IMG/VR virus record: IMGVR_UViG_3300042384_000211
Location: 32,001-96,000 of that record
DNA: 64,000 bases
DNA from: a virus
Strand: one strand, 5' to 3'
Shown: positions 4,115 through 63,214 of the stretch, piece after piece
Layout: every line of letters starts with the position of its first letter
Position numbering within the stretch: position 1 is the stretch's first letter
Made by a program: the position numbers and the translations under genes
The notes under the pieces: model-generated
Databases searched by the model: none
Told to the model about the DNA's origin: nothing
Seen by the model: the letters and a program-made list of their open reading frames with translations, nothing else

Positions 4115-4564
4115 TTATTCTGCCGTTCCTTTCAACGTCTCAAATGTAATTTCTTTGGCACGCTCGTCTAATGCTTTGCGTTCTAGTTCGGCTACAGTAC
4201 GCAATAGGTCCTGCATTAGATCAACAATAACCTCGCGGCCATCTGCTGTTAAATGACAATATTCACGCCCGACTGGACTACTGTGCCATAGTTTGGAGTT
4301 GGTAATTAATCCCTGTAATGCACCGTACACAACATCTTTATTAGCCTGCTGGGCTAGTTTGTAATTCTTTGTCATAATTGCGTCCTTAAACTTTAAATTA
4401 TACAAATCAAGTGACTTAGTTGGTTTTCTCAGTCGCTGGAGTCGTTGCCATAGTCGCACATATCGCCATAGTTTATCTAATAGTATCATGCTTACCCACA
4501 TAACACTTAATCCAACTGCTGTTACTAGAATTAGCCCCAATGTCGACCATAATCCACTGTACAT
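4115..4564 (-). CDS. hypothetical membrane-anchored protein
   Basis: N-terminal TM segment, AGGAG RBS; a possible second start at MTKNY. Confidence 0.55.
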   Translation of the reverse strand: MYSGLWSTLGLILVTAVGLSVMWVSMILLDKLWRYVRLWQRLQRLRKPTKSLDLYNLKFKDAIMTKNYKLAQQANKDVVYGALQGLITNSKLWHSSPVGREYCHLTADGREVIVDLMQDLLRTVAELERKALDERAKEITFETLKGTAE

Positions 4565-4594
4565 AATGTTCTCCTACATTACATTAATATACTA

Positions 4595-5941
4595 TCATTT
4601 AATGGCATTGTCAAATTGTTCGATAACTTTTGCTAAATCATCTGCTACTTTCTTGTCTGTTCTAAATTCAGCAAAGCGTGGTAGGAATAATGAATATTTT
4701 GTGTTGTTACCCGTTGGGGGCATAATGCTGTTGCCTTTAACTGTGACAATCGTACCTATTAATTTATCACGATTGTTATGTACTTCTAAACGTACTTCAT
4801 CTGTAAAGCCACTGATGTTTACTTCAAGTAAACCATCGCTTGATTGGCAAACAATAGAACCAAACGTTGCTTCGTTTTTACCATTGCCAGCATTAAATCC
4901 CATTATAACCAAATCAACGTCGATATCAAGTTTCATTTTAACTTGGTCTTTGCTGGTGGTATCTTTCCAAATACCTGTAGCATTTTTAATAATTGTACCT
5001 TCCATGCCAAGGTCTAACATTTCACGATAGTGAGCAAGTGCTTCTTCCATGTTGTGTACAATACGTGTGTCGATAAGCTCAATACATTCTGCTCGTAATG
5101 TTTGTATCGCTAATTCAGCAAAGCGAAGTTGATAAGGTACATTATAAGTACCTTTAGAAACTACTGAAGTTAGAGCTATTTGGTCCCATACTAGGTATAC
5201 AATCTCATCGTTTGACCCAATATCGCCACCTTTTTGTACCTTATTTAAGATACCATTGCCAATTTGACGTGGTAGAACTACACCATCACGTTTAACTAAC
5301 AATTCACCGTGTGACTGTGTACCTACTGGGAATGTTTTTTGTACGTCAGCAATTAAATGTGCAAAGTGTTGCTGTGGAAATAATGAACCTGCACGACTTA
5401 GAATTTGTACTTCGCCATCTGCTGTGTGATTTACATTGGCAAACATACCATCTGCTTTAAGCTGACTATAAACGCCATTTGCCCAACTAAACTCATCTAA
5501 CTTGGCAGCTTTTGGTAGTGCGCAACGCATATACGGAAACTCTGGAATTAAATTCTTCCATACTTTATTGGCTGTTGACTCACCGAAGCCAGCACGCAGG
5601 TCACGATCCACAACCTTAGCAATTACTTTTGCATTGTCTGCTGATACACATTCGAGTATAAGTTTAAGCTGATTAATACCAGCGGTGCCAGTAATTTGGC
5701 GTGTGCTTAACGTTTCTAATAACGAAAATGCTTCTGACATGGTCATGAAGTCAATGCGCATTTTAGTTTCGTACGGGGGGATTTTCTTAATGTAGAAGTT
5801 TACAGTTGGGTCGTAGGCAAGGCGAACAACTTCTTGTAATTCTCGATTGTCTTTATGCTGTGTAAGGATAGCAATTTTTGCATTCTTACTAGGTTCGTTA
5901 GCAACTTCTTCTAAAATAGCGTTTATCATGTATACACTCAT
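4595..5941 (-). CDS. ATP-dependent DNA ligase (T4 gp30-like)
   Basis: KADG adenylation motif, HGEL, EGTIIK, LFLPRF..FRTDK. Confidence 0.95.
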   Translation of the reverse strand: MSVYMINAILEEVANEPSKNAKIAILTQHKDNRELQEVVRLAYDPTVNFYIKKIPPYETKMRIDFMTMSEAFSLLETLSTRQITGTAGINQLKLILECVSADNAKVIAKVVDRDLRAGFGESTANKVWKNLIPEFPYMRCALPKAAKLDEFSWANGVYSQLKADGMFANVNHTADGEVQILSRAGSLFPQQHFAHLIADVQKTFPVGTQSHGELLVKRDGVVLPRQIGNGILNKVQKGGDIGSNDEIVYLVWDQIALTSVVSKGTYNVPYQLRFAELAIQTLRAECIELIDTRIVHNMEEALAHYREMLDLGMEGTIIKNATGIWKDTTSKDQVKMKLDIDVDLVIMGFNAGNGKNEATFGSIVCQSSDGLLEVNISGFTDEVRLEVHNNRDKLIGTIVTVKGNSIMPPTGNNTKYSLFLPRFAEFRTDKKVADDLAKVIEQFDNAIK

Positions 5942-5959
5942 TTATTAATTTATAAGTGT

Positions 5960-5988
5960 ATTATACAGCCATTTTGCCATCTTGTCAA
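5960..5988 (-). promoter_or_regulatory. sigma70-type early promoter
   Basis: TTGACA-N17-TATAAT. Confidence 0.85.
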
Positions 5989-5989
5989 C

Positions 5990-6166
5990 CTAAGATTTGC
6001 CCCAGTTGACCTGTAACCATATACGTTCCATTACGTAATGAAGTGCCGCTAACACTATATGAATTGCAATTGCTTGCCCGAGTCCTGTCCACAATGCTGT
6101 AATTGCCAAAGCCGCAAATCGATAACTTAGTGTGCGAGCAAGGGTTCGTATATGTGTTTCTGTCAT
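5990..6166 (-). CDS. DUF2061-like small membrane protein (58 aa, not in ORF track)
   Basis: MTETHIRTLARTLSYR...HYVMERIWLQVNWGKS; ATGA overlap with the halogenase stop. Confidence 0.75.
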   Translation of the reverse strand: MTETHIRTLARTLSYRFAALAITALWTGLGQAIAIHIVLAALHYVMERIWLQVNWGKS

Positions 6167-7767
6167 TTATATATTGTGCTTTTTAGAAATGCGTAATGTG
6201 TAGGTAATGCATCGACAACTTTAACAGTTTGTGCTCGGTGTTCGCGCCATGTGTTCCATGTATTAGTAGCCATATCAACGGGTTCGCTGTACTGATTATT
6301 ATTAAAATCTACTCTGCTACTATCAATAACGTTGTGCCCCATGCCTGCAATGATATATGCTATTCCGCCCATGTCGTTGCCTACTACACGCGACCTATGA
6401 AGTCGATATGCAATGTCATTGTATGAACCTAATACGCCAGCTTTAAAATCATACATCTGTTGTGAATATGTAGTTTCTTCACTAACATGATTCCAGTATG
6501 CACTATCATTACGCATAGACAAGGCATAGTGCTGACTGATAAAGTCTTTAAATCCTGTAATTTGTTCACGAAATGCAAAATTAAATGCATCAACATCAAA
6601 CCGCGTAACTCTGCCATTGCGCATTTTGAGTAGATTTACCATCTTAATAATACATTCATGTGTAAGCATTAAACCAGTTGATTCAAGTGGCTCAATGAAT
6701 CCATTTGATAGACCTATACCAATAACATTCTTTTCCCAGGTACGTTCATGTACACCATGTTTAATAGCAATATGTCGAACTTCCATTGCGTCAACACGTG
6801 CAACATCTTGTACTGTCATTCTATTAGATTTTAAATGATTTTTAAATTGTTCTTCTGCTTGTTCTTTTGTTGCAAATTTACTTGAGTAAACATACCCCGT
6901 GCCAAGTCTATCCCACAAAGGGATATTCCAAACCCATCCTGCTTCAATTGCAGTACAACTTGTAACGCACTCCATTTCTTTATCTTTATCGATATATGGA
7001 ATAACACCTGCTACTGCGCTATCATTTAATAGTGTGTCATGGAATGATATGAATGGAACTTTTAATGTTTGTTCGAGTAACAGTGATCTAAAACCCGTAC
7101 AGTCAATAAACAAATCTGCTGTTAGCTCACCATTCTTTTCAGTTACAATAGTATCAATGTGTCCTTTTGCATCCATTGTTGCGGTTAACACGTTATCTAG
7201 AATATGTGTCATACCCACCGGCAAACATAAATGGTCACGTAGATAATTACCAAATAGAGTTGCATCCATATGATATGCTGTGTCGGATTTAAAATTAAAT
7301 CCACGTATTAGATGATCCTCATTCTTTGTCATTTTATTTGCATCAGTCATTATAACCTGATCGTGATAAAATTCTGCAAATGAATATGGATCAATATTAG
7401 GTAGTGTTGCGGCACCAATAAACCATTCCATTAGACCTCTGGGCTTATCAGTAAAGTCATATCTACCAAACGGGTAATGAAATACTTGTGGCTTTTCTGT
7501 TGGGTTTTCTCTAAAATCGATAAACTTAATTGATGTCTTATATGTTGCGTTACAGTGCTTCATCCAATCTTCATCTTTAAGACCAAGATAGTGAAGGAAT
7601 TCGTTTATCTGTCCGATTGTACTTTCGCCTACTCCAATTGTTGGGATATTGGGCGACTCGATTAGAGTAAGTTTAACGTGTGGTAATTGTTTTGATATAG
7701 CAGCCGCTGTCATCCATCCCGAACTGCCACCACCTACAATAGTTATTCTTTCAATTTTGTTTCTCAT
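6163..7767 (-). CDS. flavin-dependent tryptophan-halogenase family protein
   Basis: GGGSSG FAD motif, IGVGEST, FIDCTGF, WVWNIP (WxWxIP), FIEPLESTG. Confidence 0.9.
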   Translation of the reverse strand: MRNKIERITIVGGGSSGWMTAAAISKQLPHVKLTLIESPNIPTIGVGESTIGQINEFLHYLGLKDEDWMKHCNATYKTSIKFIDFRENPTEKPQVFHYPFGRYDFTDKPRGLMEWFIGAATLPNIDPYSFAEFYHDQVIMTDANKMTKNEDHLIRGFNFKSDTAYHMDATLFGNYLRDHLCLPVGMTHILDNVLTATMDAKGHIDTIVTEKNGELTADLFIDCTGFRSLLLEQTLKVPFISFHDTLLNDSAVAGVIPYIDKDKEMECVTSCTAIEAGWVWNIPLWDRLGTGYVYSSKFATKEQAEEQFKNHLKSNRMTVQDVARVDAMEVRHIAIKHGVHERTWEKNVIGIGLSNGFIEPLESTGLMLTHECIIKMVNLLKMRNGRVTRFDVDAFNFAFREQITGFKDFISQHYALSMRNDSAYWNHVSEETTYSQQMYDFKAGVLGSYNDIAYRLHRSRVVGNDMGGIAYIIAGMGHNVIDSSRVDFNNNQYSEPVDMATNTWNTWREHRAQTVKVVDALPTHYAFLKSTIYK

Positions 7768-24715: not shown

Positions 24716-26631
<1,916 letters not shown>

Positions 26632-28427: not shown

Positions 28428-28560
28428 ATAATTTCCTTTATATAAAAGTACGCTTGATCAACAATGCGTATTACTGCAATTAAAAATAAAGTGTTTGATA
28501 TCACAAACACAAATACAATTATACACGATTTTGCATAATTGTCAACCTCTTTTTGGTCGT

Positions 28561-28583
28561 AAAAAACCCGCCGAAGCGGGTTT
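28561..28583 (-). terminator. terminator after tmRNA
   Basis: AAACCCGC-TTCG-GCGGGTTTTTT on the minus strand. Confidence 0.9.
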
Positions 28584-28945
28584 GGTTATTTCTGTTGCCA
28601 GGTAAGTCCTACCCCGGTTGTTTTAGACTAAGCTAAAACAGCAGCATCAGTACGTGAACCGAAGCGGAAGCCACGACCCATAGATACTTTTGCTACACCA
28701 TTTGTATTTGCTTTTTCTGCATTTACGATTTTTGCATTTAACGTGACCCCACGTGTTGCCCTTTATCCTATCTCACGCTGTCGAAACCTGGTCAGGCCCA
28801 TTAGTAAGTACATTAACCCGTTTGCGCTACGGTAACCCGCGGAAGGTCGTCATCTAGAATGACTCCGCATATATTGATTAAGTGGCATTAATGTACTTAC
28901 TGGTGGACCTGGGCGGAATCGAACCGCCGTCCAACATGCCTTACT
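28584..28945 (-). ncRNA. ssrA: circularly permuted (two-piece) tmRNA
   Basis: T-arm/acceptor end GGCGGTTCGATTCCGCCCAGGTCCACCA (ends 28901) precedes the 5' end GGGCCTGACCAGGTTTCGAC (starts 28799); 7-bp acceptor stem with G3.U; tag ORF 28720-28628; outer boundaries approximate. Confidence 0.9.
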
Positions 28946-28968
28946 TTAAGAGTTATACAACAATTTCT

Positions 28969-29211
28969 TTAATCAGTTGCCTTTTCCATGTAAGGAAGTT
29001 TACCCAACATGTGTAAACGCAACATTTGATGTTTTTTGTCAACCGCCACTTCTTCTGTTACACTAGCACCTTCGAGAACTTCTTTATCTTTAACAGGTGC
29101 CGCATATGAACGTTTGGCTAGTTGCTGTTGATTAACAACATTGCTCTGTTCATCTGCCTGTGCTACACCTACTGCTAATAGTGCTACGAATACTAAACTA
29201 CGTGCTAACAT
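28969..29211 (-). CDS. small secreted/periplasmic protein
   Basis: signal peptide ending AQA; GGAG RBS; internal repeat LAKRSY / LGKLPY. Confidence 0.7.
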   Translation of the reverse strand: MLARSLVFVALLAVGVAQADEQSNVVNQQQLAKRSYAAPVKDKEVLEGASVTEEVAVDKKHQMLRLHMLGKLPYMEKATD

Positions 29212-44316: not shown

Positions 44317-45104
44317 TCAACATTAATATCGCTGTTGCTAACTGTTACAGCGATTTTTTGTGCTTCTGGAAAACGTGTACGAGTATTTTTACTACCAAGC
44401 AACACAATCACACGTTGTCCTAACTCAGTATCAAGTAGCATAACCACACAACCGCCACTTTCATTTATATAACCTGTTTTACTTACTCTTACATCATTAC
44501 TATTTCTAACCATTGGATTGGTGTTGCCAAATTGCCACCAACGACGTTTAACTTTGATACTTACATTAGGTTTACCACTAGCTTCGGTAATCTCTGTATA
44601 TTCGTTTGCGGCTAGGACTAATTTACCTAAATCACGGGCATTACTCACATTGCCTGCGTCTAATCCTGTAGGGTCGGCAAATGTGGTACTTGTCATGCCT
44701 AATACAAACGCAATATGATTCATTTCAGCTATACAACGAGCTAGACCACCCGGATAATTTGCGCCTAATGTATATGCGGCAAAGTTATCACTCTTGACAA
44801 TAGCAAGATCAATTAATTCACCACGAGTCAGCTGTTTAACGCTGCGCGGTAACCGAGTGTGATACTTATTAACCATTCTACGATCAAGTGTGATCATTTC
44901 ATCTAAGTTTTGGTTGGCATCTAACACCACCATCACTGTCATTAGTTTAGTAATGCTGGCAATAGGCTGTACACGATCAGCATTCTTTTCTAGTATAACT
45001 TCGCCTGTGTTATCTGCTACTAAAAAACTTTTAGCAGTAATAGGCTTTGCTACTACTGCGGTGCAGAATAGTAGCAGTATGATGAAACTACTTGCTCGTA
45101 GCAT
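44313..45104 (-). CDS. pbpG: D-alanyl-D-alanine endo/carboxypeptidase (peptidase S11, PBP7-like)
   Basis: signal peptide; SITK, SDN and KTG motifs. Confidence 0.85.
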   Translation of the reverse strand: MLRASSFIILLLFCTAVVAKPITAKSFLVADNTGEVILEKNADRVQPIASITKLMTVMVVLDANQNLDEMITLDRRMVNKYHTRLPRSVKQLTRGELIDLAIVKSDNFAAYTLGANYPGGLARCIAEMNHIAFVLGMTSTTFADPTGLDAGNVSNARDLGKLVLAANEYTEITEASGKPNVSIKVKRRWWQFGNTNPMVRNSNDVRVSKTGYINESGGCVVMLLDTELGQRVIVLLGSKNTRTRFPEAQKIAVTVSNSDINVD

Positions 45105-47100
45105 GATATGTTCCATCAAAATTTGCAGGAACACCCTGTTCCATACGCTCAATCATTAGTTCATAATAATGTTTAATATCAACATCATCGTTGTTGACTA
45201 ATTTTTTAGCCCATACAATAGCCTTGCCCCACGAACCTCGAGTATATTCTTTGCGATACTCTTCGTGCATATACAGATTAGTACGACCAACTGTATAAAT
45301 GTCAAGACCAATTGTTTTACCTTTAACAGCAATGTTATCTAGCCATACTACAGGAAATGCATCTTTACAATACTCAGCAGTTTTAGGACCAATGATTAGT
45401 AGGACACCATATGATTTAGTCTGTCCTTCTAGTCGAGCCGCTGTACTTACACTGTCACCTAATACGTCATAGCCAAACTTGCTCTTAGCACCAATGTTAC
45501 CAATTAAGGTTTCACCAGTGTTGACACCCGCACCCATACCAACTGGCGGACGACCACTGGCTACAAGTTCTACGTTAAAGTCCTCAATGGCTTTGATCAT
45601 TTCAAGTGCTGTCTGTACAGCAGTCTTGGCGTGATTAGCATCATCTAATGGAGCACCGTGTACGTGTAGTGACGCATCACCAATGAACTTAATCAGAGTA
45701 CCGTCGTTCTTAAGTACAGGAATACTCAGTGCTGTCATGTAGTCGTTCATGATCTGTGTGAGACCTTCTACATCATCTCCAAAACTTTCACCGAGTGTAG
45801 TAAAGCCACGTAGGTCAGTCATAACAATTGATAACTCTCGACGTTCACCACCTAACTTAATTAAGTCTGGATTCTTTTGCAAGCGTTCAACAATAGTAGG
45901 GTTAACATAACTACCAAATTGTTTCTTGATCTGTTGTTTCTGTAGGAACTCTGATACAAACTTAACGCCGTAAGCATGTAGCATAACTAGAACTATGCCT
46001 GCCGTTGGTACAATAGCATCAATTAAAAATTTGTAGTGCGAGAACAGGTACATACTAGCAGGAATTAAACTAGCAGTTAATACAATACCTACACCAAGTC
46101 CTACATAGACCCAACGGCTTAAGAACAAGATGATCAAACTGATAGCGATAAGTGCCAACAGTTCAGCACCAGGTGCCCAATCGGGACGTTCAATGTTTAC
46201 ATTGTTGGCTAATGTGCCAATTACAGCGGCCTGCATATCTTGAGGCCACACGTTACCTTTACTTGTTGCTACAGGATTATTAGTACCTGCGGCTGTAGTG
46301 CCCACAATAACAATATTGCCACCAAAATCGTCGGGCAAATCAACTGCCGATACTTGACGATTAGTCTGACTCCAGTCTACCCAGATACGTCCTTGACTGT
46401 CTGTACTGATAGGATTAAAGCCAGGAATACGCATCTTCTCTACACCTTGCGCATTTAACTTAACTTGGAAAGTATTAGTGTTGACTAAGACTCGCAGAAC
46501 TTCTAATGGTATACTAGGATATACATTATTGTCGTAGCCCACAAACAATGGCAGTCTACGGTTAACCCCGTCTATTTCTGGAAATGTGTTAGCAATACCA
46601 ACACCAACAGCATTCTGCTCTAAACTAGGAATGTTAGCAATGATGCCTGGATATTGTACAATAGTGTCAATGTACTCTGAGCCAATAACAGCACTACCTG
46701 GCTTACGTGGAATATTCTTAGTTGCTTGGCCGGGCATGTTGGTTAAGATAACAGGAAAGTCTGTTAATGCTTCAGCAAGGTAAGCATCACCACCTTGTCG
46801 ATCAGTCTCTGGCATCATAACAGTCCAAACAACCAGACCAGCATTATGACTATACAGGTCGCTGATCAGGTCTGCGTAAACATCACGTTTGAATGGCCAC
46901 TGTCCAAACTTGTCTAGAGTGGCTTCATCTATGTTTACAGTGTAGATATTATTTTCTACCGGGGGTTGACTGGTAATAAGCTGATCAAAATATCGTAATT
47001 TAACGCTTTCTACAAACGTAGGACCAGTAATAGTAATACCGACAATCAGTGCTAGGGTTAGGACCGCAGTCCAAGGTGAGAGTAAGATTTTTTTAAGCAT
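45088..47100 (-). CDS. CHASE2-domain class III adenylate cyclase
   Basis: VNIDEATL..GQWP CHASE2 domain, 3 TM segments, TDLRGFT, KFIGDA, YDVLGDSVSTAARLE. Confidence 0.93.
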   Translation of the reverse strand: MLKKILLSPWTAVLTLALIVGITITGPTFVESVKLRYFDQLITSQPPVENNIYTVNIDEATLDKFGQWPFKRDVYADLISDLYSHNAGLVVWTVMMPETDRQGGDAYLAEALTDFPVILTNMPGQATKNIPRKPGSAVIGSEYIDTIVQYPGIIANIPSLEQNAVGVGIANTFPEIDGVNRRLPLFVGYDNNVYPSIPLEVLRVLVNTNTFQVKLNAQGVEKMRIPGFNPISTDSQGRIWVDWSQTNRQVSAVDLPDDFGGNIVIVGTTAAGTNNPVATSKGNVWPQDMQAAVIGTLANNVNIERPDWAPGAELLALIAISLIILFLSRWVYVGLGVGIVLTASLIPASMYLFSHYKFLIDAIVPTAGIVLVMLHAYGVKFVSEFLQKQQIKKQFGSYVNPTIVERLQKNPDLIKLGGERRELSIVMTDLRGFTTLGESFGDDVEGLTQIMNDYMTALSIPVLKNDGTLIKFIGDASLHVHGAPLDDANHAKTAVQTALEMIKAIEDFNVELVASGRPPVGMGAGVNTGETLIGNIGAKSKFGYDVLGDSVSTAARLEGQTKSYGVLLIIGPKTAEYCKDAFPVVWLDNIAVKGKTIGLDIYTVGRTNLYMHEEYRKEYTRGSWGKAIVWAKKLVNNDDVDIKHYYELMIERMEQGVPANFDGTYHATSK

Positions 47101-47111
47101 AAGATTATTTA

Positions 47112-47363
47112 TTATCTGCTTTGACGTAATCGATCTAAATATTCTCGGCCAATCTTACCCTCTTCAAGTTCTTGCAGTGCAGCACTAACAGTACGATTAC
47201 GGTATTTTAGGTTTGAATCAGCATTCTGTGCAATACGTCTAGTAGACTCAATCTCACGTGCTCGTGTAGCGGCAATTAAAATCATTTCAAATCTATTACC
47301 CCCTACATTAACCAATGCCCGATCTACGTCAATTTCTGTGCCTAATTTATCGATGTAACTCAT
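47112..47363 (-). CDS. rpoZ: RNA polymerase omega subunit
   Basis: GNRFEMILIAATRAREI...AALQELEEGKI; promoter at 47396-47424. Confidence 0.85.
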   Translation of the reverse strand: MSYIDKLGTEIDVDRALVNVGGNRFEMILIAATRAREIESTRRIAQNADSNLKYRNRTVSAALQELEEGKIGREYLDRLRQSR

Positions 47364-47588: not shown

Positions 47589-47885
47589 ATGAAATTAATC
47601 TTAACAGTATTATTATTAGGTAGTTGTATTACAGCAAATGCTAATCAAGCACTAGCACAAAAAAGTGGTTGTCTGGCATGTCACGCAGTTGATCGTAAAA
47701 TCATAGGACCATCATATCAAGATGTTGCTAAGAAATACAAAGGTCAAGACGTCGAAGCAAAATTAGTAGACAAGGTTAAGAAGGGTGGTAGCGGAGTATG
47801 GGGTCCCATGCCTATGCCAGCACACAGTCCACAGGTTAAAGACGAAGATATTAAAACACTTGTTAAATGGGTGTTAGCGCAGTAA
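47589..47885 (+). CDS. class I cytochrome c (c551/c552-type)
   Basis: signal peptide, CLACH haem motif, GP, WGPMPMP axial Met. Confidence 0.93.
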   Translation: MKLILTVLLLGSCITANANQALAQKSGCLACHAVDRKIIGPSYQDVAKKYKGQDVEAKLVDKVKKGGSGVWGPMPMPAHSPQVKDEDIKTLVKWVLAQ

Positions 47886-47886
47886 T

Positions 47887-47912
47887 AAAAAGCCCCTTAA
47901 TTGGGGCTTTTT
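47887..47912. terminator. bidirectional terminator
   Basis: AAAAAGCCCC-TTAATT-GGGGCTTTTT. Confidence 0.85.
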
Positions 47913-47916
47913 GTTT

Positions 47917-48483
47917 TTATAGTTTACCAACTAGGTCCAAACTTGGTGCTAGTGTAGCACTACCTTCTTGCCATTTAGCCGGGCATACTTCACCCGGATG
48001 TTCACGTGTGTATTTTGCCGCTTTAACTTTACGTAATAGTTCTTTTGCATCACGACCAACACCACCTGGATTAATCTCAATAATCTGTACTACGCCATCT
48101 GGGTCAATAACAAATGTACCACGGTCAGCCAGGCCTTCTAAAGGAATAAGCACACCAAACTGTTCACTTAGCTGATGATTAGGATCACCAATCATTGTAT
48201 ATGTGATGTTACGGATTGTGTCTGTAGCATCTGCCCATGCTTTGTGTACAAAGTGTGTGTCTGTGCTTACGCTGTATACTTCTACACCTAATGCTTTAAA
48301 GTCACTAGCGTATACGTCTTGCAAGTCTGCTAGCTCTGTTGGGCAGACAAATGTAAAGTCTGCTGGATAGAAAAACACCACTGACCAATGGCCTTTTAAA
48401 TCTTGCTCTGTTACTTCTACAAACTGACCTTGACGATATGCTTGTGCTTTGAACGCTTGTACTTCTTTACCGATTAAACTCAT
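47917..48483 (-). CDS. ahpC: alkyl hydroperoxide reductase C (2-Cys peroxiredoxin)
   Basis: [29 protein letters not shown]. Confidence 0.96.
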
Positions 48484-48636
48484 TTACTTCTCCTTATTAA
48501 ATTGTTAATGTACATATATTATATATTAAAATTTTTAATAAAAAAAGCCCGATTAATAGGTTTTTTTAATTGTATTTTTTAATGACCGCAATAAGTTTTG
48601 TTTATAGGTTATGAAGTAACAATGATAAATAACTGT

Positions 48637-49104
48637 ATGAAACATATACATCACATCTTACCTCAATACCTAGGCGGCACTGACGATCCTAGTAACCTAA
48701 TAGAACTTACTGTAGAAGCTCACGCAGAAGCGCATCGCTTATTATACGAGCAACACGGCAATTGGCAAGACTATTGTGCGTGGCAAGCATTGTCCGGACG
48801 TATTGGGCAAGAAGAAATATTAAGGATGAAACAAGGTATGGCTAATAAAGGTAGAAAGCGTACACCAGAACAGATTGAAAATATTAAAGCAGCCGCAAGG
48901 AAACGAGTCGAAAGACATCGCGCTGATGGTACATTAGAACGTGCAGCTATTAAGCAAAGTGCATCAATGAAGGGAAAAGTAAAATCTGAAGAACATATAG
49001 CTAATTGGGCGGCTAGTCGAAAAGGGCATGCGGTATCTGAAGAAACACGAGAAAAAATAAGAAAGACATTAGCAGAAACTAGAGCCAATAAAAAAGCTCT
49101 ATAA
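48637..49104 (+). mobile_element. free-standing HNH homing endonuclease with NUMOD3-like repeats
   Basis: HHILP..GGTDDPSNLIEL...H..AH; start moved to the ATG 5 nt after ATAAATA. Confidence 0.8.
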
Positions 49105-49117
49105 AAGAGCTTTTATT
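49087..49117. terminator. bidirectional terminator between HNH and pqqA
   Basis: AAAAGCTCT-ATAAA-AGAGCTTTT. Confidence 0.75.
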
Positions 49118-49132
49118 ATCATGTGTTAAATC

Positions 49133-49204
49133 TTAACGATTCATTACATAAAGAGTCACTTCAAAACCGAAACGCATTTCTGTTGCTGCTGGTGTAGTCC
49201 ACAT
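49133..49204 (-). CDS. pqqA: pyrroloquinoline quinone precursor peptide PqqA (23 aa, not in ORF track)
   Basis: MWTTPAATEMRFGFEVTLYVMNR with W-x-x-P and the invariant E-x-x-x-Y; AGGAGA RBS; downstream terminator. Confidence 0.93.
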   Translation of the reverse strand: MWTTPAATEMRFGFEVTLYVMNR

Positions 49205-49351
49205 AATAATTCTCCTAGATAAAAGTCTAAAACAACGTTGTGTTGTTACTAGTACTTATACATATAATAACACCAATATGGCCTAAATAACATACGTAAA
49301 ATCATTAAAGACCGATAATTTTCTTGCGATTAGTTTAGATTGCTATATCTG

Positions 49352-53571: not shown

Positions 53572-54927
53572 TTATTGCCCTTGTATTACAGTTATTGCCT
53601 GACAGGCACTAGCGCAACTACTATTAATACTGTAAAACTGTTGCACTGTACCTTGCTGATTTAAGTTTAAACTTCTAGCACCTGCTCCACTTAGAGTAAT
53701 GTCAGCCATGTGTGCAGCACTGCCCTGTTGAGTTATGTCTACTGTCTTATTACCGCCACTTACTGTCAAATCTAAGTGGTGATTGCCTGCGTCTTTCTGC
53801 AAGACCGAGACTGTATTAGCATTATTGTTAACTGTCGCGTATACACCCTTGGCGCCGCCTGTACTCTGCTGGATAACATCAACGTTATTATTGTTACCGA
53901 GAATATTTAAATCGGTATAGTTTGCAACAGTTGACGCTGTACCAGATTGGGTTATATCAACTGTATTTGAACTACCATTTCCGTAGTAGTCAACATAGTT
54001 ATTTCTTGTGCCGGTTTGATTTACCACAATGGTATTGTTGTTGCCTATCTGTTCAATGTACACCTGACTGTCCTGTGTTGTCCTATTGATAAAGGCCTGC
54101 ATAGAAGCTGATTTTTCAACGTCTATAGAAAAGGCGGCTGAACTACCGCCACAACATAAACTAGGAGCAACTGGTTCTGCAGGTGGAGCAGTAGACCCGG
54201 CATTAGGAGCCACAGCACCAAATGTCTGCCCATTCAATGCAGTAGTGCCCTGAATTTCATCTATAAACAACATCGGGCTTAGTGCTGTATCACCAAGATT
54301 AAATGAGGCAAATCCTAATATGTACGTACCAGTTTCTGGCACTGTAAAGCGAGCCTGTTGCCACCCAGTTGAACCATAAGAACCTGTAGCATAGTTACCT
54401 GTACCAGGATTAGTAAATCCCAGTAGAGCATAGCGTTGTTGACTGTTGTTTAAGTTAGGAGTAATACCACCATTGGTAGCATGTGTCAGAGTCATCATAC
54501 TGCCGTCATTAAAGGGTGTATAGTCCGTACTTAAATAATTCCAACCAAATGTATATGTGGTTCCTGCTTGTAGAGATATTTCTCGTTTGATCCAAGAAGC
54601 ATTAGTAGGAGTAGCATTACCACCACCTCCATTTTGACTTTGAAATGTTAAGTAGTTTCTTATGGCTGTATTTTCTACTGAAGTTAATCCTAACTGAGTA
54701 GTGGCCGTATTGAACTGCACACTGCCTGTGGGTTGAAGACGACCCATCTTTGTACCATAAGGATTCACTGTCCAATTCTTTCCGCCACCGGGACTGACAC
54801 TGGTAGTGCCCAATACTGTAACATCACCGCCGCTTGCGGTCCAGCCAGTTAAATTGCCAGACTCAAACCCCAACTGGGCCAGAGCATTATTACATATGAA
54901 TAACATAACAAGTGCAATTAATCTCAT
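53572..54927 (-). CDS. secreted protein with N-terminal beta-sandwich domain and C-terminal curlin-like repeats
   Basis: signal peptide; repeats IEQIGNNNTIVVNQTG and ITQQG. Confidence 0.75.
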   Translation of the reverse strand: MRLIALVMLFICNNALAQLGFESGNLTGWTASGGDVTVLGTTSVSPGGGKNWTVNPYGTKMGRLQPTGSVQFNTATTQLGLTSVENTAIRNYLTFQSQNGGGGNATPTNASWIKREISLQAGTTYTFGWNYLSTDYTPFNDGSMMTLTHATNGGITPNLNNSQQRYALLGFTNPGTGNYATGSYGSTGWQQARFTVPETGTYILGFASFNLGDTALSPMLFIDEIQGTTALNGQTFGAVAPNAGSTAPPAEPVAPSLCCGGSSAAFSIDVEKSASMQAFINRTTQDSQVYIEQIGNNNTIVVNQTGTRNNYVDYYGNGSSNTVDITQSGTASTVANYTDLNILGNNNNVDVIQQSTGGAKGVYATVNNNANTVSVLQKDAGNHHLDLTVSGGNKTVDITQQGSAAHMADITLSGAGARSLNLNQQGTVQQFYSINSSCASACQAITVIQGQ

Positions 54928-56012
54928 CTGCGTAACACTCCAGAATTCTGTTTAATACGCACTACATTACCACCCGGATCACCCGAACCAATTATAGCCG
55001 AAGCTATGTTGTCATCATGTGTAATTTCAATCGAAGTATTACTTTCGTAGCCCTGTGTTTTAACTTCAGCATAGTGATCTTCGCTTTGGCGGAACGCAAC
55101 GCCTCGACCACGTGCTTGAATAGTATCACCGTCGGGTCGTTCCCATCTCACACAGATATTAGTTGTTGGATTACAACCGGTTTTGCCGCTATCGAAACTG
55201 TAAGGTAGTACCACAGCCTTAGCGTCGGGTTCGTTGTCCATACGCTGTGACATTTGACTGACCTGTATAGCTTCCAATTCTTCTTGTTCTAGTTCGCGTT
55301 TACTTTTTGCCGCGTCTTTACTAGCTCGAATAATTTCTGGCGGGCGAGCAATAATAAGACTGTTGCCAATCTTACCTTCAACTGTATTAATAATAACCGG
55401 AGGACTAGGCATCATGTTAGCACTGGTTACATAGGTACCTTCAAATGCTTTGTCTAGGGTAACTATGCCAGCAAGTGTACTGACTTCAATCTTGCCTACT
55501 TTACATAAGTTTTCTTCTAGCTCGTATTCTTTGATCTTTTCGCCTTCTTTACAGCTAGGTACAAGAATTACTAGACTCTGCCCTGCTTCGTCTACAGTCA
55601 TGTTAAAGTCTGTACCTCGAACAGCAATTGATGCTGTGGGGGTTTTAATGTCTACTCGTTGTGGATTATTTTTAGCAATTTGTCCACTGGCATAACGTAC
55701 TGTGCCCATACCTACTTTAAGAGCTAGCTTGCCTGCATCGGATTTTTTAGGATCAAAAACAAAGTCGTCTATCATTAGTCGACTGTTTTCTGTTATTTTT
55801 ACTTTGGTGTCATCTTTAAATGTAATGTTGCTAACACAGCCGCCTGTAACATAGGTATCCATACTTTCTATGGCGGCACCTTTATTACCAGGCAGGGTCT
55901 GTTTAGCACGCTCTATTGAGCAAGCGGTACCTTTAGTATCGCTTACTGTCCCAATGCCCGCCCATGCGTTAGTAACTGCTACTAAGCATGCTATTGCAAG
56001 CAATAGTTTCAT
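54924..56012 (-). CDS. FecR-domain periplasmic protein
   Basis: F.D.TKVKITENS.L.ID, KTPTASIAVRGTDF. Confidence 0.85.
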   Translation of the reverse strand: MKLLLAIACLVAVTNAWAGIGTVSDTKGTACSIERAKQTLPGNKGAAIESMDTYVTGGCVSNITFKDDTKVKITENSRLMIDDFVFDPKKSDAGKLALKVGMGTVRYASGQIAKNNPQRVDIKTPTASIAVRGTDFNMTVDEAGQSLVILVPSCKEGEKIKEYELEENLCKVGKIEVSTLAGIVTLDKAFEGTYVTSANMMPSPPVIINTVEGKIGNSLIIARPPEIIRASKDAAKSKRELEQEELEAIQVSQMSQRMDNEPDAKAVVLPYSFDSGKTGCNPTTNICVRWERPDGDTIQARGRGVAFRQSEDHYAEVKTQGYESNTSIEITHDDNIASAIIGSGDPGGNVVRIKQNSGVLRR

Positions 56013-56015
56013 TGA

Positions 56016-56801
56016 CTATCTCACTATTGCTGATACTGGACTTACTATAGCGCCGCTACTCGAACGAACAGTAATTGTATTATTATTACCGGTTGTGCTG
56101 ATATTAAATGTAGTATCATTTGTACCTTGTTGCTGTGTAGTAATACTGTTAAAATCACCTGTAGTTGAGGTAACTAAACTATGACCAGCACTACCTGCAG
56201 CATCAATTTGTTGTATATTGAATATGTTGTTACTACCACTAATAGTGTTGGTAATATCAGCGTTGCTAGTAGTTACAGTAGTGGTCAATTGGTTACTACC
56301 ACCGTTAATAGTAGTTGATAATGCATTATCACTACCAACAATATTAGTAATCAACATATTAGTACTACCAGTAACAGTTTCAGTAACAGTATTACGCATA
56401 CCATTAGTGTTAGTATCACCGATTGTAAGTTTGCTTTGATTACCGTCACCAGTTAGAGTACTTGTAAAGCTATTATTTCCACCTTTGATGTTGTACTGTG
56501 ATTGGTTATCATCGCCGGTTTGTGTAATAGTAACACCGTTATTGCTACCGTTAATTGTAGCATAATTACTTGTACTAGGTGCTGTTACTGTTAATGTACT
56601 TAGACCTGTTGCGTCAACTGCTACACTACCAGCAATACCACCAACATCGTTTGTGCCGCCGACTTGTTCAATTGTAACAATATTGGTGCTACCTAATTGT
56701 TCAATGTAAACACGGTTAGGTCCTGTTGGACCTGCGGCCATCAATGATGTTGATAACGCTAAAAACATCATACTTACTGTTGCTTTTAAATTATATTTCA
56801 T
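56016..56801 (-). CDS. curlin-repeat (CsgA/CsgB-like) secreted protein
   Basis: signal peptide; repeated Q.G..N units. Confidence 0.75.
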   Translation of the reverse strand: MKYNLKATVSMMFLALSTSLMAAGPTGPNRVYIEQLGSTNIVTIEQVGGTNDVGGIAGSVAVDATGLSTLTVTAPSTSNYATINGSNNGVTITQTGDDNQSQYNIKGGNNSFTSTLTGDGNQSKLTIGDTNTNGMRNTVTETVTGSTNMLITNIVGSDNALSTTINGGSNQLTTTVTTSNADITNTISGSNNIFNIQQIDAAGSAGHSLVTSTTGDFNSITTQQQGTNDTTFNISTTGNNNTITVRSSSGAIVSPVSAIVR

Positions 56802-56834
56802 CGTCGTGCTCCTTGGATTTTTAAAATCCTATTA

Positions 56835-57701
56835 TTATTTTATTGTTTCTAACAGCGGGTATGTTATACCATCTGTTTGTACTACAGGCTTAGGTTCTTC
56901 TTTGTAAGACCAATGCCCTTTACGAACCCCTTCTCGAATAGTAGCAATCACGGCCGCTTTTACTGCTAGGCTTGTTGCTTTATTGATACTTTCATTGATA
57001 CTCATACCAGTTTCAGCTTCGACGGCTTTTGTGCCTTCTTCAACAAACTTTAATACACCAAGTTTGTCCATGTAGCTTAATACTGTTTTAGTAACTGTTA
57101 CAGTTGTTAATACTTCACCTGTATTAACACTTACTGTTCTTAATGTAACCGTTACTGTATCACTTTGGTATTGCGTTTGTGCGCCAATACCTAGTATACG
57201 AACACCACTACCACCCGTAAGCAGGTTACTATCGTAGCCTGTTATACTTCCTTCAACAATAACACCAGCAAACATCATTGGTGGTAATGCCTTAGCTTCA
57301 CGACCTTGATATTGTTCACGCATCTGACGAATCATCTGACGTTCTTTAATCAAATTGTCTAACCCTACACGTTCTAACACAGTAAACCAACGTTGGTCGC
57401 CTACATCTTGTAGGGCGCCAATTAGGTATGCTTCTGCACCTTGCGATACTGCTGTACTAAAACTAGCCACGTTGGGTACATTTTTACGCTGTCCGGTTTT
57501 ATCTAAGAAACTATATACTGCTACCGGAACGGGGCCGCCGCTCGGAGGTAATACCTTATTCTCTGGTTTAGTAAAGTATGTTTCACGTACTATCTCAGGT
57601 TTATCAAATTGCTCACTTGTTATTTGTTCACGGATAGCACTACTTGTTGCACATCCTGTTAACAGTGCGGTTATTAATAAGGATATAAGTGTTTTATTCA
57701 T
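56835..57701 (-). CDS. csgG: curli secretion channel CsgG-like lipoprotein
   Basis: lipobox LTGC; AVYSFLDKTGQRK, FSTAVSQGA, WFTVLERVGLDNLIKERQ. Confidence 0.9.
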   Translation of the reverse strand: MNKTLISLLITALLTGCATSSAIREQITSEQFDKPEIVRETYFTKPENKVLPPSGGPVPVAVYSFLDKTGQRKNVPNVASFSTAVSQGAEAYLIGALQDVGDQRWFTVLERVGLDNLIKERQMIRQMREQYQGREAKALPPMMFAGVIVEGSITGYDSNLLTGGSGVRILGIGAQTQYQSDTVTVTLRTVSVNTGEVLTTVTVTKTVLSYMDKLGVLKFVEEGTKAVEAETGMSINESINKATSLAVKAAVIATIREGVRKGHWSYKEEPKPVVQTDGITYPLLETIK

Positions 57702-57710
57702 GTATATTCC

Positions 57711-58208
57711 TTAAAAATAAAATGAGCCTGCAGGCACTTTCATTGTTGTAATATTATTAACGTTAGCTAGGTCCTGTATAGTGATGATAATTAACCCATT
57801 ATCATTACCTGCACCCAAACTCCATTGAATACTATTTCCGCCTAAGTTTGGAATATTACCGCATACTACACCCGCTGTAGTACAAGTAGCACCTTCTCCA
57901 AACATACTGTCAGTTAGTTGTTTAGCCAACTGACTATAAATTCTTGATTCCAGATTAGCAATAAAGCGTGCCTGCGGAGTATTAAGTGCAGCAGATTCTG
58001 CTTTATCTCGAATAGCTTCTGCGGCAGATTCGCGCTTGTCTTTTGCTTGATCCTCTAATTGTTTAATCGTAAGGGCATGTATACCAAATCCTTGTCCGTG
58101 AAATGCCGGACTATTAAAGGTGTGTACCATTTCTGCGGCCTGCGCAATATTAGCGCCAGCAGTTAGCACGACGACCATTAAAAGATTGTAGAACATAGAT
58201 TTAATCAT
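57711..58208 (-). CDS. csgF: CsgF-like curli assembly protein
   Basis: signal peptide followed by MVHTFNSPAFHG; F..NLESRIYSQLAKQL...MFGE; directly upstream of csgG. Confidence 0.75.
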   Translation of the reverse strand: MIKSMFYNLLMVVVLTAGANIAQAAEMVHTFNSPAFHGQGFGIHALTIKQLEDQAKDKRESAAEAIRDKAESAALNTPQARFIANLESRIYSQLAKQLTDSMFGEGATCTTAGVVCGNIPNLGGNSIQWSLGAGNDNGLIIITIQDLANVNNITTMKVPAGSFYF

Positions 58209-59987: not shown

Positions 59988-60452
59988 CTATTTTTCGAAT
60001 GAAATTGCAACCTTTTGTCTAACTGGCTCAGGTATAAATTGAACCAATTTAACTGTTAGGATGCCATTTTTAACGTGCGCTGAGTTGACTTCTACTCCTT
60101 CAGCAAGTTTGATACGTTTGACAAAATCACGAGCAGCGATACCACGATGAATGTACTCTACTGGATTTTCGCGTAATTCTTCAAATGCCTCTTCTAAGCT
60201 AACTTCACGGTTAGTGCCACGGATAACTAATTCACCGTTTTCGATTTCTACATCTAATTCGTCTTCAGCAAAACCAGCTACTGCTAGTTCAATAGCGTAG
60301 TTATTTTCGTTTAGTTTAATTAGATTAAACGGTGGGTAGCCACTGTCCTTACCACGTTGCTCTAAGTGTTGCAGTTGTGCAAACAAATCATCAAAGCCAA
60401 TAGCAAATTTATAGATGCTAGGGATATCAAGGGTTGTGTAAACTTGTTTCAT
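59988..60452 (-). CDS. small heat shock protein (IbpA/Hsp20)
   Basis: IGFD, YPPFN, IELAVAGF, YIHRGIA.RDF, NGILTV. Confidence 0.93.
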   Translation of the reverse strand: MKQVYTTLDIPSIYKFAIGFDDLFAQLQHLEQRGKDSGYPPFNLIKLNENNYAIELAVAGFAEDELDVEIENGELVIRGTNREVSLEEAFEELRENPVEYIHRGIAARDFVKRIKLAEGVEVNSAHVKNGILTVKLVQFIPEPVRQKVAISFEK

Positions 60453-62371
60453 TATTTACTCTCCTTGTTAACTTCTGTGAATTCAGCATCCACAACACCA
60501 TCTTGCGCATCCGTTGGTGTCTGCTGACCCGGCTCAACTGTTGCTGACTCTTGTGCTTGTTTAGCTTGGTAGATTGGTGCTACTGGTTCTGCTAATTTTA
60601 CCATTGCTGATTTAATTGCTTCTGCATCATCACCTTTAATGGCTTCTTCTACAGCGGCAATAGCATCATTGATTGCAGTATGTTGTTCAGCAGTTACCGA
60701 GTCACCAGCTTCTTCTACAGTTTTCTTAACATCGTGAACCTGTGCTTCAGCTTGGTTACGTGCATCAACTAATTCACGCAATTTTTTATCTGCATCGGCA
60801 TTAACTTCTGCATCCTGTACCATTGCATCAATTTCTTCTTCAGTTAAACCTGAGTTAGCTTTGATAGTAATCTTGTTTTCTTTGCCAGTTGCTTTATCTT
60901 TAGCACTTACTTTTAAGATACCATTAGCATCAATGTCAAGAGTAATTTCAATTTGTGGTTGACCACGACGTTGCGGTTCGATACCTTCTAAGTTGAACTG
61001 GCCAAGTACTTTATTGTCTTTGACAAACTCACGCTCACCTTGTGCTACCATAACAGTAACAGCTGGTTGATTGTCCTCTGCTGTAGAGAATGTTTGGCTT
61101 GCTTTGGTAGGAATGGTTGTATTTTTCTTAATCAGCTTGGTCATAATACCACCCATTGTTTCAATACCCAATGATAGTGGAGTTACGTCTAGTAACAATA
61201 CATCAGTTTTATCGCCGCCTAGTACAGCACCTTGAATAGCCGCACCGACTGCTACAGCTTCATCTGGGTTAACGTCTTTACGTGGAGCCTTACCAAAGAA
61301 TGCTTCAACAGCTTCTTGTACTTTAGGCATACGTGTTTGACCACCGACTAAGATAACATCGTCAATGTCACTAATGCTAATACCAGAGTCTTTAACAGCA
61401 ATCTTACATGGATCAATTGAACGTTTGATTAAATCTTCAACTAGACCTTCAAACTTGCTACGTGTTAGTTTAACTGATAAGTGTTTAGGACCAGTAGCAT
61501 CAGCAGTAATGTATGGTAAGTTTACATCTGTCTGTGTTGAACTTGACAATTCAATCTTAGCCTTCTCAGCTGATTCTTTAAGACGTTGTAAGGCCAGCAT
61601 GTCTTGTTTTAAGTCAATGCCAGATTCTTTCTTAAACTCGTCTACCAAGTATTCCATAATACGTTGGTCAAAGTCTTCACCGCCTAAGAATGTATCACCA
61701 TTAGTTGACAATACTTCAAATTGTTTTTCACCGTCGATGTCACTGATTTCAATAATACTAATATCAAATGTACCACCACCTAGGTCATACACAGCAATCT
61801 TACGGTCTTTTTTATCACCTTTATCGCAACCAAATGCTAGTGCAGCCGCAGTTGGTTCGTTGATAATACGCAATACTTCTAAGCCTGCAATACGACCTGC
61901 ATCTTTAGTTGCTTGACGTTGGCTGTCATTGAAGTAAGCAGGTACTGTAATAACTGCCTGCGTTACACTGTAACCCAAATAGTCTTCTGCTGTTAATTTC
62001 ATTTTGCGCAGAACTTCTGCTGAAATTTGTGGAGGTGCTAGTTTGTCACCGTTGACTTCGACCCATGCATCACCATTTTCGTTTTTAACGATTTTGTATG
62101 GCATTAGGTCAATGTCTTTTTGTACTGCTGGCTCGTCAAACTTACGACCAATTAGTCGTTTGCTGGCGTAGATTGTGTTTTTTGGATTAGTAACTGCTTG
62201 GCGTTTAGCACTAGCCCCCACAATGATTTCATCGCCGTAGGCAACGATACTTGGTGTAGTACGAGCACCTTCGTTATTTTCAATTACACGTGATTTATTG
62301 TTTTCAAGAATTGCGACGCAACTATTTGTAGTTCCAAGGTCTATGCCCAGAACAGGTGATTTTCTTGTCAT
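60452..62371 (-). CDS. dnaK: molecular chaperone DnaK
   Basis: [29 protein letters not shown]; start MTRK has an AGGAG RBS. Confidence 0.98.
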
Positions 62372-62375
62372 ATAT

Positions 62376-62434
62376 TTCTCCTTTAAGTTAAGCAAGAATA
62401 AATTAATTACGAACCCTATTATAGGCATTCGTAT
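62376..62434 (-). promoter_or_regulatory. ROSE-like 5' UTR structure (putative RNA thermometer) of dnaK-hsp20
   Basis: UACGAA-UGCCUAUAAUAGGG-UUCGUA hairpin, then UCUUGCU able to pair with AGGAGA. Confidence 0.6.
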
Positions 62435-62464: not shown

Positions 62465-63214
62465 TTATTTTTTTGTCAACAATTTTTGCCACTTTTCTCT
62501 ATTATAATTAGTTTTACCGTGGCAGGCTTTACATAACGGAATAAGATTTTCTAATAGATTATTTGTTTTATTGTAATCTATATGATGTATATCTAATTCT
62601 TCTGTTACAGTATTACATAGTTGACAAGTCAGATTATGTGCTTCTTTAATTTTATATTTTAATTCTTTATTAAATTCTAAACCGTATTCGCCATTGGATA
62701 TTCCGCCCAGCCAATTTGGATGATTTTCTTTCTTGGGTGTATTTTGTGTTTGCTTTTCTTTTTGCTCAGGTGTATATGCCCATTTGCCTTGTTTGGTTTC
62801 TCTGAGATGTTGTTTGGTTTCTTCGGAATGAGTGTGTCCGAAAAATCCATTATTTTCGCCAAGCCTGGCTTGGGGATTTTCTGCCAGATATTGCGTTAAA
62901 CTTTTACTAATTTTTTCAGCAACACCCGGAAAAGTCGAAGGATTATTAGTAGATGATAACTCACTCATCTTTTTCCTAAATTCAGCAGCAAATTCTTCAC
63001 CTACTCGTTGTTCCCACGAGATTGATTTTTGCCAATATTTGTGACATTCACGAGAACAGGCGAGTTTTCGCCTGTCTGTTGTCACAGGAAGATTGTAATC
63101 TTCACTGTTTTTATCGCCTATCATTCTTATTGGGAAGTGATTATTACATTGGGGATTAATACATTTTTTATTTTGAATGTATGTATATTTTCTATCGAAG
63201 TTAAACTTAGCCAT
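62465..63214 (-). mobile_element. HNH homing endonuclease with NUMOD3 and Zn-finger motifs
   Basis: HSEETKQHL, NWLGG, CQLC...DIHHIDYNKTNN..NLIPLCKACH. Confidence 0.85.

Follow-up and report, generated by a model that had tools for sequence, protein, structure and literature searches.

What would a phage gain from carrying the gene for the peptide precursor of a cofactor when the enzymes that convert this precursor are not found on its sequenced genome? PqqA is a ribosomally made peptide in which a glutamate and a tyrosine are cross-linked on the way to PQQ, and one PqqA is destroyed for each PQQ formed. A gene of this kind lies in an IMG/VR virus record, a linear sequence of 140,799 bp, of which bases 32001-96000 were analyzed here as one stretch of 64,000 nucleotides (hereafter, the window, to which all coordinates refer unless stated otherwise). 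Completeness of the record was estimated with CheckV at about 40%, so that the genome would amount to roughly 350 kb.

An earlier, sequence-only reading of the window had presented the gene as a case of a phage that supplies only the precursor and thereby boosts methanol oxidation by its host. PqqA and methanol dehydrogenase were, however, already reported in T4-like Lake Baikal viruses of Methylophilaceae by Coutinho et al. 2020 (Microbiome 8:163, PMC7678222), who proposed the viral PqqA as an auxiliary gene sustaining PQQ-dependent methanol oxidation. Viral pqqA, with the same proposed role, has thus been in print since 2020, and the novelty implied for the present case was overstated. The result obtained for the window is confirmatory, and the more useful general point is the under-annotation of viral pqqA together with its spread across phage lineages.

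Identity of the 72-nt ORF

The ORF lies at positions 49133..49204, exactly where the sequence-only reading had placed it, on the minus strand, which that reading had left unstated. It comprises 23 codons and a TAA stop, 72 nt in all, and encodes the peptide MWTTPAATEMRFGFEVTLYVMNR, in which both residues of the cross-link, Glu15 and Tyr19 (E-V-T-L-Y), are intact within 23 amino acids. The assignment to PqqA, which had been made from the letters alone with a profile search suggested as the check, passed with both curated models: the Pfam model for PqqA (PF08042) matched the window peptide with 37.9 bits (cut-off 21.1, E 1.7e-9) across all 19 model positions, and the NCBIfam equivalog TIGR02107 with 37.1 bits (cut-off 20, E 2e-9) across all 21 positions. 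When all six frames of the 140.8-kb record were searched, no other ORF matched PqqA. Beyond the model scores, the gene has the further marks of the family, that is, a short peptide with Glu-X3-Tyr, an ATG start with a ribosome-binding site, and a pattern of selection on the peptide (see below). An association with pqqBCDE is missing, a feature that is typical of operonic copies and does not define the family. By all these sequence features, the window ORF is a genuine PqqA and not a chance match.

Genomic setting

Were the locus a host-phage chimera, or the record a misfiled bacterial contig, pqqA would be a host gene and the question of its benefit to a phage would not arise. There are grounds for this suspicion. 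Many neighbors of pqqA are of cellular type (a CHASE2 adenylate cyclase, an RpoZ-like protein, a cytochrome c, AhpC, a metallophosphoesterase, and porins), as do DnaK and GroEL in the same window, and such misfiling does occur in public databases. Two GenBank records named Acinetobacter phage MD-2021a (CAKLQF020000010.1, CAKLQH020000055.1 = L008) contain ordinary bacterial pqqABCDE operons beside ppk; they look like bacterial contigs filed as phage and were rejected as viral examples.

In the present record, however, pqqA is flanked on either side by genes for virion proteins and phage replication. The window encodes tail-fibre proteins, a 1222-aa virion structural protein (phrog_5838, E 1e-223), and a phage-type ATP-dependent DNA ligase, and the parts of the record beyond the window, taken on both sides, encode a clamp loader, a DnaB-like helicase, the large subunit of ribonucleotide reductase, another helicase, a Lon-like protease, and tail proteins. 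The GC content is even at about 0.39, without a break near pqqA; homing endonucleases are scattered among the genes, as happens in large lytic phages; and DNA contigs from independent lake metagenomes leave no bin of the 3 kb around pqqA uncovered. Furthermore, the neighbors of the window gene (the CHASE2 cyclase, the RpoZ-like protein, AhpC, the HNH endonuclease, FecR, and CsgG/F) recur at 45-85% aa identity in the viral loci L103, L044 (from a 72-kb IMG/VR contig), L122, L030, and L077, and were seen in 0 of the 120 host-genome pqqA loci among the matches listed. Because the neighbors recur beside pqqA in other viral contigs and never in these host loci, a host-phage chimera is very unlikely, and pqqA is encoded by the phage, within a bona fide phage genome that shows no host junction, as the earlier reading had assumed. 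A megablast search of the window segment 40000-60000 against GenBank phages produced no match, and so no close cultured relative of this phage is known.

The immediate surroundings of pqqA consist of mobile and host-like genes. An HNH-type homing endonuclease (48598..49104, plus strand; phrog_655, E 4.2e-19) lies outside the pqqA unit, between pqqA and the gene for an AhpC-type peroxiredoxin (47917-48483, minus strand). In two related viral contigs (L122 and L030), the ahpC homolog (64% aa identity) is located immediately 3' of pqqA, which is thus directly upstream on the same strand with no endonuclease in between; a homing endonuclease beside pqqA was found in the window, L077, and L103. From this comparison, a pqqA-ahpC pair seems to have been split by a mobile endonuclease gene, which is present in some relatives and absent from others, as a mobile insertion would be. 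In one contig from an RNA run, position 47902 is joined to 48559, a sign of a variant genome without ahpC at that spot.

Next to ahpC, a class I cytochrome c of the c551/c552 type is encoded on the plus strand (47589-47885; 98 aa with a signal peptide; best PDB match 2d0s_A, E 1.6e-30), up to 76% identical to genes in 60/61 sampled genomes of the host family. It is close in size to the small soluble cytochrome cH of Methylophilus and might, next to pqqA, contribute another phage-borne component to the electron chain of methanol oxidation. The RpoZ-like (RNA polymerase omega/Rpb6) protein (47112-47363) and the 670-aa CHASE2-domain adenylate/guanylate cyclase (45088-47100), both on the minus strand, are conserved beside pqqA in L044 and L103. 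This pair is unusual phage cargo.

Host type and habitat

Species-representative genomes were searched with a back-translated pattern for the core EMRFGFEVT[L/M]Y, and at least 120 stretches matched. Among 80 listed genome loci, 63 were named Methylophilaceae or one of its genera (Methylotenera, Methylophilus, Methylobacillus, Methylovorus, Ca. Methylopumilus, and others), 16 were named at higher ranks that include Methylophilaceae, and one came from an Acidovorax MAG. The window peptide is identical at 21/23 positions to the commonest host PqqA among the matches listed, MWTTPAATEMRFGFEVTMYVMNK, from which it differs by Leu18 and Arg23 in place of Met and Lys. The core motif is therefore almost confined to this family, and the sequence-only reading was right to compare the peptide with Methylophilaceae PqqA. 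The locus was recovered from at least 22 lake-water metagenome runs of 2020-2025. Going by pqqA itself, the one host-like cytochrome c, and the habitat, the window phage is most likely a large tailed lake phage that infects freshwater Methylophilaceae, a host assignment to which no CRISPR-spacer or tRNA match adds; more generally, pqqA can serve as a handy host-family marker for uncultured phages.

The sampled genomes of this family invariably contain pqqA (81/81), in 1-12 copies with a median of 5, and even the streamlined genomes of ~1.3 Mb have 2-3 copies. In contrast to pqqA, pqqC is a single-copy gene in 80/81 of these genomes, and thus the hosts already amplify precursor dosage relative to the enzymes, an arrangement that fits the destruction of one PqqA per PQQ. 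As far as gene counts can tell, the multiple host copies show that the dosage of the precursor gene matters.

Missing pathway partners

Model searches of the 140.8-kb record for pqqB (TIGR02108), pqqC (TIGR02111), pqqD (PF05402), pqqE (TIGR02109), and PQQ-dependent alcohol dehydrogenase (TIGR03075) found none of these genes, and a tblastn search of the record with a bacterial PqqB-E set gave no match. The absence of pqqB-E, which had been claimed for the window, thus extends to the whole record. Elsewhere, pqqB-E genes flank 0/120 viral pqqA loci versus 27/120 host loci (among the matches listed); the flanks of the other 93/120 listed host loci lack pqqB-E as well. The maturation pathway that is absent from the phage sequence is available in the predicted host family, as attested by pqqC in 80/81 genomes and by PqqB/C/D/E beside pqqA at the 27 host loci.

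Supply of the precursor and nothing else is a property of the record and not necessarily of the phage: pqqB-E or xoxF could sit in the unsequenced part, because the record is ~40% complete and related Lake Baikal phages encode methanol dehydrogenase (PMC7678222). Going by its published description, Baikal VP_266 from that study resembles the window in that PqqA is found in a large freshwater phage with a predicted Methylophilaceae host from lake water. Unlike the window phage, the Baikal populations encode methanol dehydrogenase and, in VP_139, radical-SAM proteins; none were found in the 140.8 kb of the window record.

Spread and selection of viral pqqA

The pqqA pattern was detected in at least 120 IMG/VR contigs. 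In a tBLASTn search of GenBank phages with the peptide, one of the checks that had been suggested earlier, homologs were found in ten real GenBank phage records, nine of them from Methylophilales/Methylophilaceae phages and one from an uncultured spring phage; the ORF is intact in P19250A, Venkman, MEP301, MEP401/402, four Melnitz isolates, and MW202481. Its omission from the ORF track of the window is plausible in light of these records, since in all ten (10/10) the homologous ORF either lacks annotation or is covered by an erroneous antisense "hypothetical protein." The antisense CDSs over the PqqA ORF at 74848-74943 of Melnitz-1 (MZ577095.1) and at 2067-2195 of MW202481.1 are probably mis-calls. 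None of the publications on Melnitz (PMC9004378), MEP401/402 (PMC10580990), MEP301 (PMC8024684), and Venkman (PMC8163748) refers to pqq among the phage genes. The gene is shorter than the usual ORF-calling length, and surveys of auxiliary genes (AMGs) undercount it.

The viral loci were clustered by common neighbor proteins, yielding at least 7 multi-member groups and 12 singletons. Among the matches listed, one group brings 68 loci together with P19250A, Venkman, and MEP301; another, of 19 loci, has no cultured member; the group of the window contains 17 loci; and Melnitz and MEP402 are singletons. Judging from these neighborhoods, pqqA sits in several unrelated phage backbones. The cultured methylophages (P19250A, Venkman, MEP301, MEP401/402, and Melnitz) share with the window a PqqA of 23-24 aa with a Shine-Dalgarno sequence and the motif E-V-T-[L/M]-Y, 73-91% aa identity to the window peptide, and no pqqB-E nearby, whereas their backbones (genomes of 35-44 kb, and 141 kb in Melnitz) and pqqA neighborhoods are different. 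In Melnitz, pqqA lies between tRNA-Arg and tRNA-Leu.

Across 215 distinct homologous genes, the entropy of the third codon position is 2-4 times that of positions 1 and 2, in viral and host copies alike, and the bias also holds in codons outside the searched pattern; the peptide is thus under purifying selection in the viral copies. The nearest relative of the window gene is viral (L077, 63/69 nt identical and encoding the same peptide), whereas the best host gene among the matches listed is identical at 59/69 nt; the window pqqA is accordingly neither a fresh capture nor a case of att-like identity.

These comparisons bear on three explanations under which the phage would not be feeding the host pathway. 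In the first of these, pqqA is a neutral passenger (a "moron"), host DNA that was recently captured and brings the phage no benefit. Such a passenger could well look like the window gene, which is tiny, adjoins a mobile homing endonuclease, lies in a variable accessory region rich in host-like genes (AhpC, cytochrome c, and porins), and has many dispersed host copies from which it would be easily picked up. However, the 59/69 match to the best listed host gene indicates that the capture is not recent, the variation biased to third positions shows selection on the peptide in viral copies, and the gene persists in at least 7 unrelated neighborhood groups, including 35-44-kb genomes in which space is scarce. 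The TATAAT box of the viral copies (see below), which occurs in no listed host copy, argues in the same direction, and we consider a passenger unlikely.

Alternatively, pqqA might provide a patch of DNA homology for integration or recombination at host pqqA, resembling attP, with its coding capacity incidental. The several target copies per host genome and the Cro/CI-type regulators and recombinases near pqqA in some small methylophages would be in keeping with such a function. Against it, the 140.8-kb record yielded neither a tyrosine nor a serine recombinase, and thus no integrase; the mismatches to the best listed host gene (59/69 nt) are scattered and leave no long exact core; conservation tracks the codon structure; and pqqA is also present in Melnitz, a phage classed in the T4-like family Kyanoviridae. 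A homology patch is therefore about as improbable as an assembly artefact, and more so than a passenger.

In the third explanation, the phage peptide is a decoy or inhibitor that binds host PqqD/PqqE and blocks or redirects PQQ synthesis. PqqA does bind PqqD tightly, an established piece of biochemistry that makes a decoy conceivable, although nothing speaks for one directly. The window peptide is identical to the commonest listed host PqqA at 21/23 positions and keeps both Glu15 and Tyr19, one of which a decoy would be expected to lose. The Leu that replaces Met between Glu and Tyr is the residue normally found there in functional PqqA of other bacteria (Klebsiella PqqA). Overall, a decoy appears highly improbable, somewhat less so than a homology patch.

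The closest cellular counterparts of the window gene are the stand-alone pqqA genes of Methylophilaceae chromosomes, which are of equal length, 21/23 identical in their commonest peptide, mostly devoid of adjacent pqqB-E, and followed by a strong hairpin 3'. They differ from the window gene in their chromosomal setting, in their neighbors, and with respect to the TATAAT box, which was seen upstream of none of the 120 listed copies.

Expression signals

A Shine-Dalgarno sequence, AGGAGA (49211..49216, minus strand), precedes the ATG of pqqA with a 6-nt spacer, in agreement with the ribosome-binding site that the earlier reading had pointed out. Motifs of this kind are present at the matching distance in 109/115 viral and 108/112 host copies among the matches listed. 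Further upstream, 50 nt 5' of the ATG, there is a weak candidate for a -10-like box, TATAAG (49255..49260, minus strand), without a convincing -35 element. Among the matches listed, an exact TATAAT was found 30-50 nt upstream of 46/117 viral copies (39%), compared with 5% of control windows and 0/120 host copies; by analogy with these viral copies, TATAAG may be taken as a weak promoter candidate for the window pqqA. A consensus scan called no two-hexamer promoter at TATAAG. The scan itself was discarded: it returned 5 sites against a shuffle mean of 5.2, and the sole site near pqqA overlaps the start codon.

Downstream, a hairpin followed by a U-run (49087..49120, minus strand), with a 9-bp inner stem AAAAGCUCU/AGAGCUUUU and a 5-nt loop, is a candidate intrinsic terminator that begins ~13 nt past the pqqA stop codon. 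The hairpin is genuine yet modest, with a minimum free energy of -13.6 kcal/mol (z -1.85) that was reached by 9/200 shuffled sequences. Structure at this place is common to the viral copies, in which the 60 nt after the stop codon fold with a mean of -14.8 kcal/mol versus -7.9 kcal/mol when shuffled (among the matches listed). The stop codon of the converging plus-strand ORF, the homing endonuclease at 48598-49104, falls within the hairpin, making it a candidate bidirectional terminator common to pqqA and the endonuclease ORF. Thus, the hairpin and U-run on which a terminator of pqqA's own had been proposed are present, but they are not private to pqqA.

Two freshwater metatranscriptome runs contained contigs that match pqqA (summed depth >500), most of which diverge just beyond the ORF; these represent other pqqA copies and were not counted as expression of the window phage. 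One 170-nt metatranscriptome contig (X23 record 3) aligns with positions 49124-49248 at 118/125 identical nucleotides (94%) and extends into phage-specific flanks on both sides; it carries neither strand nor level, and DNA carry-over in the library is possible. This one short contig is a weak hint that the phage pqqA is transcribed. Over the homing-endonuclease and phosphoesterase genes, RNA contigs were absent, and the contig data are unusable as a silent-stretch control.

Proposed role of phage pqqA

The reading that we favor, with a probability of about 0.75, is that the phage pqqA supplies the consumed precursor to the PqqBCDE of the host and so keeps PQQ-dependent methanol oxidation going during infection. 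Under this scheme, which is built from gene content and sequence conservation, the phage pqqA transcript would be translated into PqqA in the infected cell, host PqqD/PqqE would cross-link its Glu15 and Tyr19, and a host peptidase, PqqB, and PqqC would complete PQQ. As one peptide would be used per PQQ, and PqqA and its mRNA are presumably short-lived whereas the enzymes would outlast the failure of host transcription, supply of the precursor would be the step that a phage can sustain with 72 nt. The new PQQ would then load periplasmic methanol dehydrogenase (XoxF/MxaF) and thereby provide energy for phage production. To expect a boost of host methanol oxidation, as the sequence-only reading did, seems reasonable on this basis.

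One point against the scheme concerns demand. As a cofactor, PQQ is stable and tightly bound, so that a need for new PQQ within one infection cycle is not obvious unless new apo-dehydrogenase is made, and the 140.8 kb of sequence yielded no dehydrogenase gene.

The supply of precursor would have an analog in cyanophage psbA, which encodes the D1 protein of photosystem II, in that in both cases the phage would carry only the part of a host energy system that turns over fast or is consumed, and would leave the remainder to the host. The two differ in that D1 is a protein of full length, replaced after damage, whereas PqqA is a peptide destroyed stoichiometrically to make a cofactor, and they have no sequence or structural relation.

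A wider and much more tentative proposal, to which we give well below even odds, is that pqqA is a signature auxiliary gene of the phages of PQQ-dependent methylotrophs, independently acquired by many unrelated backbones and placed under a phage promoter on every occasion, and that in the window phage it belongs to a host-derived island of pqqA, ahpC, and cytochrome c that keeps the periplasmic chain from methanol dehydrogenase to cytochrome running. If true, precursor-peptide supply, and not enzyme supply, would be the rate-limiting and phage-targeted step of the cofactor pathway, and the phage would be the first virus found to provide nothing but substrate to a RiPP-type cofactor pathway. 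In lakes and coastal seas, methanol and other C1 compounds are consumed to a major extent by Methylophilaceae (the OM43, LD28/Ca. Methylopumilus, and Methylotenera groups). If phages sustain PQQ synthesis in these bacteria with a 72-nt gene, infected cells would keep oxidizing methanol, with a bearing on C1 carbon flux, and the consumed precursor peptide would prove to be limiting for a cofactor pathway.

Other cargo of the window phage

A block on the minus strand (53572-58208) encodes CsgF, CsgG, an unassigned 261-aa ORF, a protein with a FecR domain, and one with curlin repeats; the viral locus L103 has this block and the CHASE2 cyclase at 30-57% aa identity, and Melnitz and pelagimyophages are known to have the csgGF pair as well. 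ARAGORN predicted a permuted two-piece tmRNA (28537-28993, minus strand) with the tag peptide AEKANTNGVAKVSMGRGFRFGSRTDAAVLA; a two-piece tmRNA is also present in the OM43 phage Melnitz (PMC9004378). A further HNH-type homing endonuclease, with NUMOD3 and HNH domains (62465-63214, minus strand), is interspersed among the accessory genes. A tryptophan-halogenase-like protein (6163-7767), GroEL (24716-26335), and DnaK (Hsp70, 846 bits; 60452-62428) are all encoded on the minus strand of the window, as is the Lon-like ATP-dependent protease (L249) at 4471-6465 of the record. The chaperone and protease set of the window phage is typical of very large phages.
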